Of a stretch of DNA of 31,502 nt, positions 21,601 through 24,600 are shown in pieces. Under the pieces are notes generated by a model. It was not told the DNA's origin. It saw only the letters and a list, made by a program, of their open reading frames with translations, and ran no database searches. Made by a program: the position numbers and the translations under genes. Position 1 is the first letter of the stretch. The number at the start of each line of letters is the position of its first letter. Origin of the DNA: a virus. Lineage: Duplodnaviria > Heunggongvirae > Uroviricota > Caudoviricetes. The stretch lies in the IMG/VR virus record IMGVR_UViG_2531839662_000032. One strand, given 5' to 3'.

Positions 21601-24600
21601 TCAGAACGACCAGTTCACACCAGCTACCGCGTTCCACGGGGATTCCACACCGGCACTATGGCTATACCCCACCCCAAGATGCCCGCTTAACGTACTGCTG
21701 AATGAGGCTTTAATACCTGCCTGGTATATTCCACGTCTGCCCGACAAATAATTGACGAAATTACCGTCACTATTCACTTTCACCCGGTTATCATCGACAA
21801 ATTCTTTGCGCACAGCCGCCTTCAGCCACGGCTCAACTTCCATACCGTTCCCCAGACGCATGTTGTAACTCAGCGTTGCGCCCAGTTCACGATATATACT
21901 GCGGGTATCGACTGATTTCGATTTCATGCCATTGGATAAATGATATTCGGGGTTATCAGCGGTGAACCCCGTTAACGATGCATACGGCGTCAGGTTCCAG
22001 TTACCATCGGTAAATCGCATCCCGGTTTCAATGTGACCGCCCAGCCCGTTGCTGTGGTAACTGCCATTGGCGGCTCCACCGCTGCTCATTTTACCTGCTA
22101 CGTTACTTTTAAAACGGTTCAGCTTCACGACACCGTCCAGATAGAAACCACTTTCATGTTCCCAACTGGCATAGCCGCCCAGAGAATAACTGCCCACACT
22201 GCCATGTCCTCCGCGATCAAAACCGATATGTGAATGGGAATAGCCCATAAAAGCGCCTAGCGTGGTAATTCCTTCAGGAATATCATTACGGCTGTCGATC
22301 CCCACTGTCATTCCGGTCAGCGTCTGCTCAAACCCGGCACCCGCATCGGTGGTGACATTATTACGGGTGTTATACGTCGCCCCCCAGACATTATTGTTGT
22401 GTGGACTCGCTTTCATTATGTTCAACCGCTCGCGAATACTGTTTAGCTCAGCATCAAATACCAACGGTAATGTTGCTGCCATATTGAGTACGGCTGCCGT
22501 AGAAGGCGTAATGCGTTTCTCCGGAACGGGTGTCGGCGTTGGATCGGGAGTAGGGTCTGGTTTTGGATTTGGGTCTGGCTTTGGATCGGGTTTTGGGTCT
22601 GGCTTTGGATTTGGGATGGGGTCCGGGTTGGGTTTGACATCATTGGTCAGGTTCCAGTTGCTGTTGCCGTCACTTTTCAGGACATACTCATAGGTCCCAA
22701 GATCAACGAAACCGCCGGTATTGCCCAGCGTAAACGAAGCATCCCCTCCCCCTGTTTTCACCAGCGTCATCGCGTCGTCAGACTGTGGGCTGACGCCGGT
22801 ATCCTGAACAAAGATTTTAAAATTACCAGTGGCGTTGTTGTTGACGACCAGTTGATCGCCCCGGGAGCCTGCAACGTTGGTATGCAGGTAGAAATTACCG
22901 CTACCGGAAAGTTCATTGGTTGTCAGCGTATTGTAGATACCGTTAGTTGTGGCAGGCGCTGCTGTTTGTGCTGACAAATAAACATCACCGTCGTTGAGTA
23001 GCAAACTGTTTACTCTATATTCGCAGTTGCTGGTACCTGCACAGGAATTATTGCTGTTAAGCCAGACACTGCCCCGGCTGGCAGCCGTCAGGTCGGCAAG
23101 CGTGGTATCGACGCCATTTCCCAGAGTCAATGTCGCGCTATCGGTAATCCGGACCGCCCCTTCGAGTTTAACTGGCGTAACATTATCCCGTGGCGTCATT
23201 AACGACAGGCTTCCTGTCGCGCCACTGACCGATGCATCCGCCAGCGTACCTGCGTAGACGATTGCCGTACCGCCAGCGACCTGGAGATCTTCTGCCCGGG
23301 CCAGAGCCTGAAACTCATCTTTTGACCGCCCAAGGGTATATTGCCCGCCAGAGTTAACCTTTGTGGCGGAGTCCTGACCCAGGTTTTGCATTGCCCCACC
23401 CTTGCCAACCGTGGAGTCGCGAGCTTCGGTACCTGCTAATACCAATAAATTACCGCCATTTTCCAGCAACATATTGGTCGCTAAATTGCCGGAAATGGAA
23501 AAAGTACCGTATTGGTGAGTACCGCTGATTTCAATACCGTTAGCCGTGCTCGTCTGGAGAGCGGCACCGCTGTTCTGGACGATATCTGTCGCTTTGCCAT
23601 TATCGTTGACTGTCAGCGTACCGCCTTCATTGATCTTTGTTTTTATTGCCTCTCCGTTAGCTGAAACTGTTTGTATTCCGCCGTCGTTAATTGTTGTCTC
23701 ATTCGCCACACCCTCGACAATTTGTTCACCGCCGGTGAGCGTCGTGCCTGTCGCAGTGGCTTTTGTTTTGACGATCTCCCGTCCGCCCATATTGACCTGT
23801 GTTTTGTCAGAAGAGGTGTCTGACTCCACGGTTAACACGCCGCCATTTGCCAGCAGGATATTGTTCGCCGCACCCTGCTCGATGCTGAACGCGACGCCAT
23901 CCGCGCGTGTTCCTGTGACCCGCGTCGCCCTGGTGGTTGCAACCAAAGCGCCCTGGCTACTCTGCTGTATCCCCGTTGCGCTGCCTTTCTCCCGCACATC
24001 GAGTGTGCCGCCGTCATTAAGCACCGAGTTTTCAGCCAGACCGCCCTCATTAACTACCTGTGAACCCCCATTAATAATGGAACCTTCCGCTGTCCCGTTT
24101 GCCATAATTTGTTGTAGGCCAGAGACGATATCGGTATTGATTGCCTTACCATAATTCTGAACGGTTTGCGTGCCACCATTGATGTGTGTTTTCTCTGTTG
24201 ACCCACCATCAACAATTTGTTCACCACTTTCGATATTTGCTTCAGTGGCTAAACCATATACCGTTTGCTTGCCACCTTTGATATTTGCTTTATCAGAAGT
24301 GGCACTGGCATATATTGTTTGGGTGCCAGCACTATTGAGTACAGTGCCAACATCTTTTCCATAAACATCCATTTTGCCGTTGGCATTAATAATCGTGTCA
24401 ACTGCGCGGGAACCAGTGACGACTGTTAATGAGCCAGCGTTTTCCAGCACTACATTTTTAGCTTCTGAATTCCTGATGTAGAAAGCATCACCATAACTGT
24501 TGGTTCCTTCGATAAGTGTTCCGGAGGTCGTGGAAGCAATTAATGCGCCGCCGGATTGTTGCTCAACATGCTTAGCCTCACCACCGTCCTGAACCTCCAG

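Follow-up and report, generated by a model that had tools for sequence, protein, structure and literature searches.

The DNA analysed here is a stretch of 31,502 nucleotides from a virus of the Caudoviricetes (IMG/VR record IMGVR_UViG_2531839662_000032), which we call the window at its full length. It carries on its minus strand the autotransporter gene ypjA/ehaD, and inside this gene we find an unbroken run of 19 X-Pro dipeptides. We consider it likely that this tract is an in-frame spacer of variable length in the surface adhesin YpjA/EhaD and that it forms an extended stalk there. The tract, KPNPDPIPNPKPDPKPDPKPDPNPKPDPTPDPTPTPVP, occupies 22522..22635 on the minus strand (114 nt, 38 residues, 1183-1220) and is built of imperfect tandem repeats of 6, 12, 24 and 42 nt.

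An X-Pro tract between the passenger and the barrel of YpjA

Read on the minus strand, the tract is preceded by ...NDV and followed by EKRITPSTAAV..., and its flanking anchors, ...AACTGGAAYCTGAC... and ...GAGAAACGCATYACGCC..., are conserved. X is K, D, N, T, I or V in the 19 dipeptides, and 50% of the tract is proline. Running Tandem Repeats Finder, we obtained overlapping arrays at 22535-22635 with periods of 12, 18, 24 and 42 and scores of 60-127. We also calculated the self-identity of the tract at lags of 6, 12, 24 and 42, which was 0.58, 0.64, 0.66 and 0.71, respectively. The maxima in the rest of ypjA were 0.38, 0.41, 0.47 and 0.51 at the same lags (1,415 segments of equal size), and the maxima over the entire window were 0.43 at lag 6 and 0.46 at lag 12. 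Because the self-identity of the tract exceeds that of all other segments of the gene, the repeat is real and far beyond chance. The units are degenerate at the DNA level, showing synonymous codon differences. The longest exact internal direct repeat is the 19-nt ATCCAAAGCCAGACCCAAA, whose two copies on the minus strand (22592-22610 and 22568-22586) are 24 nt apart; the pair (22568..22610) is the trace of a four-unit duplication.

The ypjA/ehaD gene (21601..26181, minus strand) was called as an open reading frame of 4,581 nt that starts from a Met at 26181 (MNRTSPYY), ends in a stop codon at 21601-21603 and yields a protein of 1,526 aa. RefSeq names the identical gene 'adhesin-like autotransporter YpjA/EhaD'. 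With a 601-bp query (window 22300-22900), ypjA of K-12 MG1655 and of many other strains showed 100% identity. YpjA/EhaD is a biofilm-promoting adhesin with neither a solved structure nor a known mechanism (PMC9289746; PMC12547504). Its signal peptide is given as 29 aa (PMC13101318), and by eye the N-terminus, MNRTSPYYCRRSVLSLLISALIYAPPGMA, resembles a Sec signal peptide.

Searching Pfam, we find AIDA repeats (PF16168) in 13 stretches of YpjA (E = 6e-147). The Pertactin-like C-terminal passenger (autochaperone) domain PF03212 (22645..23013, minus strand, E = 2.4e-45) covers residues 1058-1180 and lies directly N-terminal of the X-Pro tract; counted from the true Met, these Pfam residue numbers (1058-1180) become one less. 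The 12-stranded outer-membrane beta-barrel translocator PF03797 (21670..22389, minus strand, E = 5.5e-46, 157.8 bits vs a cutoff of 26) is the Autotransporter barrel at residues 1266-1505.

We modelled the last 409 residues of YpjA with AlphaFold from a 26-sequence alignment, in which the tract is query 66-103. The mean predicted local distance difference test score (pLDDT) was 74, and the predicted template modelling score (pTM) was 0.73. Beta strands were predicted up to query 62, query 63-106 was without secondary structure, and the pLDDT was below 50 over 68-103. A predicted alpha-helix at query 109-139 (residues 1226-1256; 22414..22506, minus strand), which would plug the barrel pore, begins 5 residues past the tract. 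After this helix, strand segments at high pLDDT span query 146-408, and we grouped them into 12 strands. In sequence matches to the PDB, the last 62 residues ahead of the tract align with residues 472-534 of the 539-residue P.69 pertactin chain 1dab_A. Of the solved translocators, BrkA (3qq2) matches from query 127 onwards and Vag8 (7akv) from query 100. Having a barrel, a linker helix and a beta-helical passenger, YpjA is a classical (type Va) autotransporter and an AIDA-I-type adhesin. The tract is therefore a spacer that joins the autochaperone end of the passenger to the predicted pore-plugging helix. It is distinct from the 'linker' of the autotransporter literature, which is the alpha-helix ahead of the barrel (PMC9289746).

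A first-pass annotation of this DNA had described a tandem Pro-rich repeat in the autotransporter, and such a repeat does exist: the plus strand reads GGATTTGGGTCTGGCTTTGGATCGGG at about 22565-22590, and the minus strand encodes PDPKPDPKPDP. The repeat had been placed at 22560-22640, which captures roughly the N-terminal two thirds of the tract but stops short of the C-terminal TPDPTPTPVP (22522-22559) and extends 5 nt too far at the other end. Its assignment to the region linking passenger and barrel agrees with our domain order, as the tract falls between the Pertactin domain and the Autotransporter barrel, more exactly ahead of the pore helix. The short-period DNA repeats that it reported are also there, but they are imperfect, and exact repetition goes no further than 19 nt.

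On the plus strand opposite the tract, GGGATGGGGTCCGGGTTGGG at window 22613-22632 is the only canonical G-quadruplex motif (four runs of at least 3 G, loops of 1-7 nt) on either strand of the whole 31.5-kb window. Shuffled sequences gave an expectation of 0.245 motifs. The motif lies on the template strand of the tract and is probably a by-product of the CCC proline codons. A 143-aa open reading frame on the plus strand (window 22262-22693) runs antisense to ypjA across the tract. We rejected it as an artefact and almost certainly no gene, as its Gly-rich sequence mirrors the Pro codons and the gene that it overlaps is well supported. A dibasic site (KR, KKR or KRR) stands right after the tract in every tract-bearing homolog that we aligned; in YpjA it is the EKR at window 22513-22521. 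That an outer-membrane protease might cleave there and release the passenger is pure speculation.

Tract length among strains and relatives

We surveyed tract length in 5,426 complete E. coli genomes, about 2,500 of which carry ypjA. The census of length alleles used about 120 evenly sampled rows, plus identity bands, out of these 2,500 genomes. The 601-bp query matched 2,557 genomes; among evenly spaced rows, the match length was 601 in 30, 595 in 20, 607 in 6 and 751 in one. Using a 221-bp query centred on the tract, we obtained sampled match lengths of 221 (31 rows), 215 (19) and 227 (8). Translated examples showed that the tract alleles of ypjA have 18, 19 or 20 X-Pro units. In the aligned examples, all of these indels fall inside the tract, and each is a multiple of 6 nt.

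The 221-bp query returned 2,526 records, with 1,267 at 99% identity or more, 38 at 95-99%, 796 at 90-95% and 425 at 80-90%. The 1,267 genomes keep the tract length of the window, because an identity of at least 99% over 221 bp excludes a 6-nt indel. Sampled rows at 97.7% identity or more all had this length too. The 18- and 20-unit alleles sit on haplotypes that are 4-5% diverged, and length tracks haplotype. Adding a single tandem copy of the 12-nt AACCCA-AATCCN to the 18-unit allele gives the 20-unit allele. In the 19-unit allele of the window, this AACCCA-AATCCN unit is broken by an AAC to ATC change (Asn to Ile), and a 24-nt near-duplication is found instead. Apparent substitutions reached 9-12% in the tract vs 2-3.6% in 700 nt of flanks, and the alignments thus point to relaxed constraint on the tract relative to its flanks.

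Frequent change among close strains, as expected of high mutability, was not seen at the ypjA locus. The length changes of the ypjA tract are always in frame and resemble slippage or unequal exchange between units, but they are rare and old. The first-pass annotation had proposed that such repeats can vary in copy number between strains by slippage, and had named an invariant length across many strains as the observation that would speak against this. We find three length alleles of ypjA, and the proposed variation is indeed present between strains (18, 19 and 20 units), but it is slow at ypjA and strong only in a paralog.

This paralog came to light through the 751-bp outlier. It is a second gene, located between minE and ymgJ, that RefSeq also names ypjA/EhaD; it encodes about 1,120-1,150 aa and is absent from the window. 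Copies are found at L007:8153-11539, at L009:8152-11500 and in L010-L019, and strain GPEC874 carries both the minE-ymgJ paralog and the ssrA-side ypjA. The site is presumably where K-12 has the ycgI pseudogene. The passenger of the paralog is shorter than that of YpjA. Its tract has the same flanks as in ypjA, with ...NWNLTNNV ahead of it and EKRITPSTAAVLNM... behind it. The C-terminal DPTPEPTPTPVP end is kept, and everything else in the tract has been purified to an (Asn-Pro)20-38 array. Two sub-arrays, (AATCCG AACCCA)n and (AATCCA)m, make up this array; each changes in length independently of the other, and both differ between two O166:H15 strains. Its expanded 12-mer, AACCCA-AATCCG, is the one that also occurs in the 18- and 20-unit ypjA alleles, in one or two copies. 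About 158 of the 5,426 genomes match the paralog at 90% identity or more. The best 60 of these (about 158) showed 14 match lengths of 343-451 nt in 6-nt steps, equivalent to 26-44 X-Pro units. Such variation is what slipped-strand change classically leaves in a purified repeat.

Other relatives were collected by a large protein search, which returned mostly fragments of 700 aa or less; a scan of GTDB gave only E. coli and one E. albertii locus. The homologs of E. albertii have 9, 10, 15 or 16 X-Pro units; in those of Salmonella and some others, the proline-rich segment is irregular and 21-26 residues long. YejO-type homologs (54% identity) have 0 tract residues; their flanks are joined directly, with ...WSLAEN running into RAQITPST..., and the dibasic site is missing. 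The insertion point is fixed between conserved flanks, ...SDGNxNWxLT on one side of the tract and EKRITPSTAAVLNMAA... on the other. The tract is therefore an optional insert at a fixed point, with 0 to 44 units across relatives. The literature searched contained no paper dealing with either the YpjA tract or the Asn-Pro array of the paralog.

The stalk reading, known parallels and alternatives

The closest described case to the YpjA tract is TibA, the self-associating autotransporter of enterotoxigenic E. coli, which has a 'proline-rich domain' at 627-677 between its junction region and its membrane-embedded domain (PMC3835316). TibA belongs to the same AIDA-I type class, and its extra proline-rich segment of about 50 residues holds a position equal to that of the YpjA tract, which is likewise proline-rich and located between the autochaperone region and the membrane domain. 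However, TibA is not an ortholog of YpjA, and the two are likened by description and position. The literature searched yielded no description of a copy-number polymorphism for TibA.

For repeat-number polymorphism in an autotransporter, the closest case is pertactin of Bordetella. Its regions 1 and 2, (GGFGP)n and (PQP)n, are in-frame, proline-containing passenger repeats of variable number, and PQP occurs in two to eight repeats, differing between strains and species (PMC3966384; PMC12994607). The YpjA tract is an in-frame variable-number tandem repeat of the same kind, with a unit that is a multiple of 3 nt and a copy number that changes from strain to strain within constant flanks. We take the PQP region to follow residue 534, where the P.69 alignment ends, and it would then be positionally equivalent to the YpjA tract. 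The unit of pertactin is the tripeptide PQP, whereas that of YpjA is a dipeptide. Also, the variation of pertactin is tied to vaccine-era selection, and we know of nothing comparable for YpjA.

Alternating X-Pro sequences form extended, semi-rigid spacers in the (Glu-Pro)n-(Lys-Pro)m rod of TonB, in the OmpA hinge and in trypanosome procyclin. All of them share with the YpjA tract the X-Pro alternation with charged X. However, these are unrelated proteins of the periplasm or of a eukaryotic surface, and the likeness is compositional. The tract gave a sub-threshold Pfam match to the Pro-repeat family of procyclin (PARP), PF05887, and this match (32 bits vs a cutoff of 100) does not establish homology.

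As a stalk, the tract may work as follows. The X-Pro alternation would bar helix and sheet, and the tract would take an extended, polyproline-II-like, semi-rigid conformation, as inferred from known X-Pro sequences. At about 3.1 Å per residue at most, the 38 residues could reach up to about 12 nm. In classical autotransporters, the pore helix reaches the cell surface with its N-terminal end. Thus, a tract attached there would act as a stalk, lifting the passenger of roughly 1,150 residues off the barrel and probably through the lipopolysaccharide layer. At the DNA level, the tract probably originated when units of 6, 12 and 24 nt were duplicated, and its length probably changes by replication slippage or unequal recombination between them. 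The repeats in the allele of the window have since been degraded by synonymous and missense changes, including AAC to ATC, and the allele is therefore stable. Because the tract lengthens or shortens only in multiples of 6 nt, the frame is always kept. The length differences at ypjA (18, 19 and 20 units) are probably old, lineage-linked and close to neutral.

Several points weigh against this account. The extended, surface-exposed stalk state of the tract is drawn from analogy with other X-Pro sequences. The low pLDDT denotes only the lack of a confident fold, and the reach of roughly 12 nm is an upper bound from ideal geometry. There are YejO-type relatives without the tract, and as they have none, the tract is dispensable for secretion. 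The length alleles were counted from about 120 sampled rows and from identity bands, and rare recent indel variants of the window haplotype could sit among the 38 records of the 95-99% band.

The length variation might instead be adaptive or antigenic: an exposed repeat that is immunodominant or matched to the environment would be selected for immune escape or for fit to the O-antigen or capsule. Pertactin, which varies in GGFGP and PQP repeat number (PMC3966384; PMC12994607), is a precedent, and the YpjA segment ahead of the tract aligns with the end of the P.69 passenger. The paralog fits this idea as well, with 14 length alleles in 60 genomes and two independent unit changes between two O166:H15 strains. 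But a pure hexanucleotide/dodecanucleotide array yields many alleles without any selection, and ypjA shows only three lengths, one unit apart and tied to haplotype, with 1,267 genomes matching at 99% or more. Nothing at the ypjA locus supports antigenic or adaptive tuning of length, and we regard such selection as unlikely. We give a slightly smaller chance to a tunable stalk length that sets the reach of the adhesin past lipopolysaccharide or capsule. On this view, the paralog would hold a 'reach' contingency locus in its (Asn-Pro)n array, supplying in-frame length variants for selection by O-antigen, capsule or host, and the ypjA tract would be its degenerate, frozen counterpart.

A role in secretion or processing was also considered, in which the unfoldable tract helps to start passenger translocation as a hairpin in the barrel, or serves as a flexible hinge exposing the Lys-Arg site (EKR/ITPS) to an outer-membrane protease that frees the passenger. 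The location of the tract immediately ahead of the pore helix would suit such a role, as would the KR, KKR or KRR that follows it in YpjA, E. albertii, Salmonella and other tract-bearing homologs. However, the YejO-type homologs (54% identity) have the same flanks with neither tract nor dibasic site, and cleavage of YpjA is undocumented in the YpjA literature examined. An essential secretion role thus appears unlikely from the homologs, and the prospects of this explanation as a whole are slim.

Much less probable is a role of the tract in binding host proteins, be it as a proline-rich partner of SH3, WW or EVH1 domains or of matrix proteins. Its sequence is proline-rich and presumably exposed, but the strict X-Pro alternation offers no PPxP, PxxP-with-basic-anchor or FPPPP type motif. 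X varies freely (it is all Asn in the paralog), close relatives are without the tract, and the membrane-proximal site is the least accessible part of the adhesin. We see next to no chance for a phase-variable contingency locus that switches the adhesin on and off by repeat slippage, even though a tandem repeat within a surface-adhesin gene and ypjA copies annotated as frameshifted pseudogenes might suggest one. The units are of 6, 12 or 24 nt, and lengths differ by multiples of 6 nt only. The frame is kept in every intact tract that we read (18 loci and the window; the tract of L005 is cut by an insertion sequence), and the annotated frameshifts fall outside the tract in the sequences read. 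A frameshift-based switch is ruled out by the fact that all tract indels are multiples of 6 nt.

Genomic surroundings and significance

In other strains, ypjA is often inactivated. The insertion sequence IS1203 lies inside the tract in strain CEC13091 (L005:442-500), and IS1A (L024:92-860) lies about 180 nt downstream of the tract, in the barrel-proximal part, in strain 20A24. Annotation marks the ypjA copies in O157:H7 FRIK2533, EC571 and HCP5S3_I2 as frameshifted or partial. In K-12, ypjA is taken to be silent. We also considered the tract as a hot spot for insertion sequences and rejected the idea, as one IS1203 inside it and one IS1A about 180 nt off make no pattern.

The window is not K-12 DNA: it is 100% identical to the porcine strain UMNF18, and the K-12 derivative 9A is identical to it between about 21400 and about 29262. 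Left of ypjA (1-21300), the window holds the transfer-messenger RNA gene ssrA (40-402) and an integrase open reading frame (631-1845). Next comes a lambdoid prophage, which includes tail genes and a restriction-modification pair; in K-12, the CP4-57 element is found at this place. The prophage ends with the DarT ADP-ribosyltransferase toxin (20669-21283, minus strand, Pfam E = 5.8e-23) and its NADAR-type antitoxin (19976-20665, minus strand, Pfam E = 7.3e-90), a pair that stands directly 3' of ypjA. The ypjCB gene is split by an internal stop (27093-27884 and 27984-28466, minus strand) as in K-12, and it is intact in strain GPEC874. The K-12 tRNA-Ile gene is cut at 29262, with 46 nt remaining in the window (29217-29262), and a tyrosine integrase gene (29460-30737, plus strand) follows this remnant. 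A second island appears to have integrated into the tRNA-Ile gene, and ypjA would thus lie between two integration hot spots.

In summary, the variable-length spacer of YpjA is a real but ordinary example of a known feature type and leaves the understanding of autotransporters unchanged; the most notable by-product is the hypervariable array of the paralog. In pangenome and genome-wide association study pipelines, the tract will appear as allelic noise, and one RefSeq name covers two loci. The hexanucleotide array of the paralog could be a fine-scale typing marker. YpjA is already in use as a display scaffold (PMC13101318), and the tract is a natural, dispensable site at which the stalk of surface-display constructs may be shortened or lengthened. 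For E. coli, the finding means that the spacer next to the membrane in a common adhesin consists of an in-frame repeat which has been acquired, lost, lengthened and shortened at one fixed insertion point, over a range of 0-44 units across relatives.

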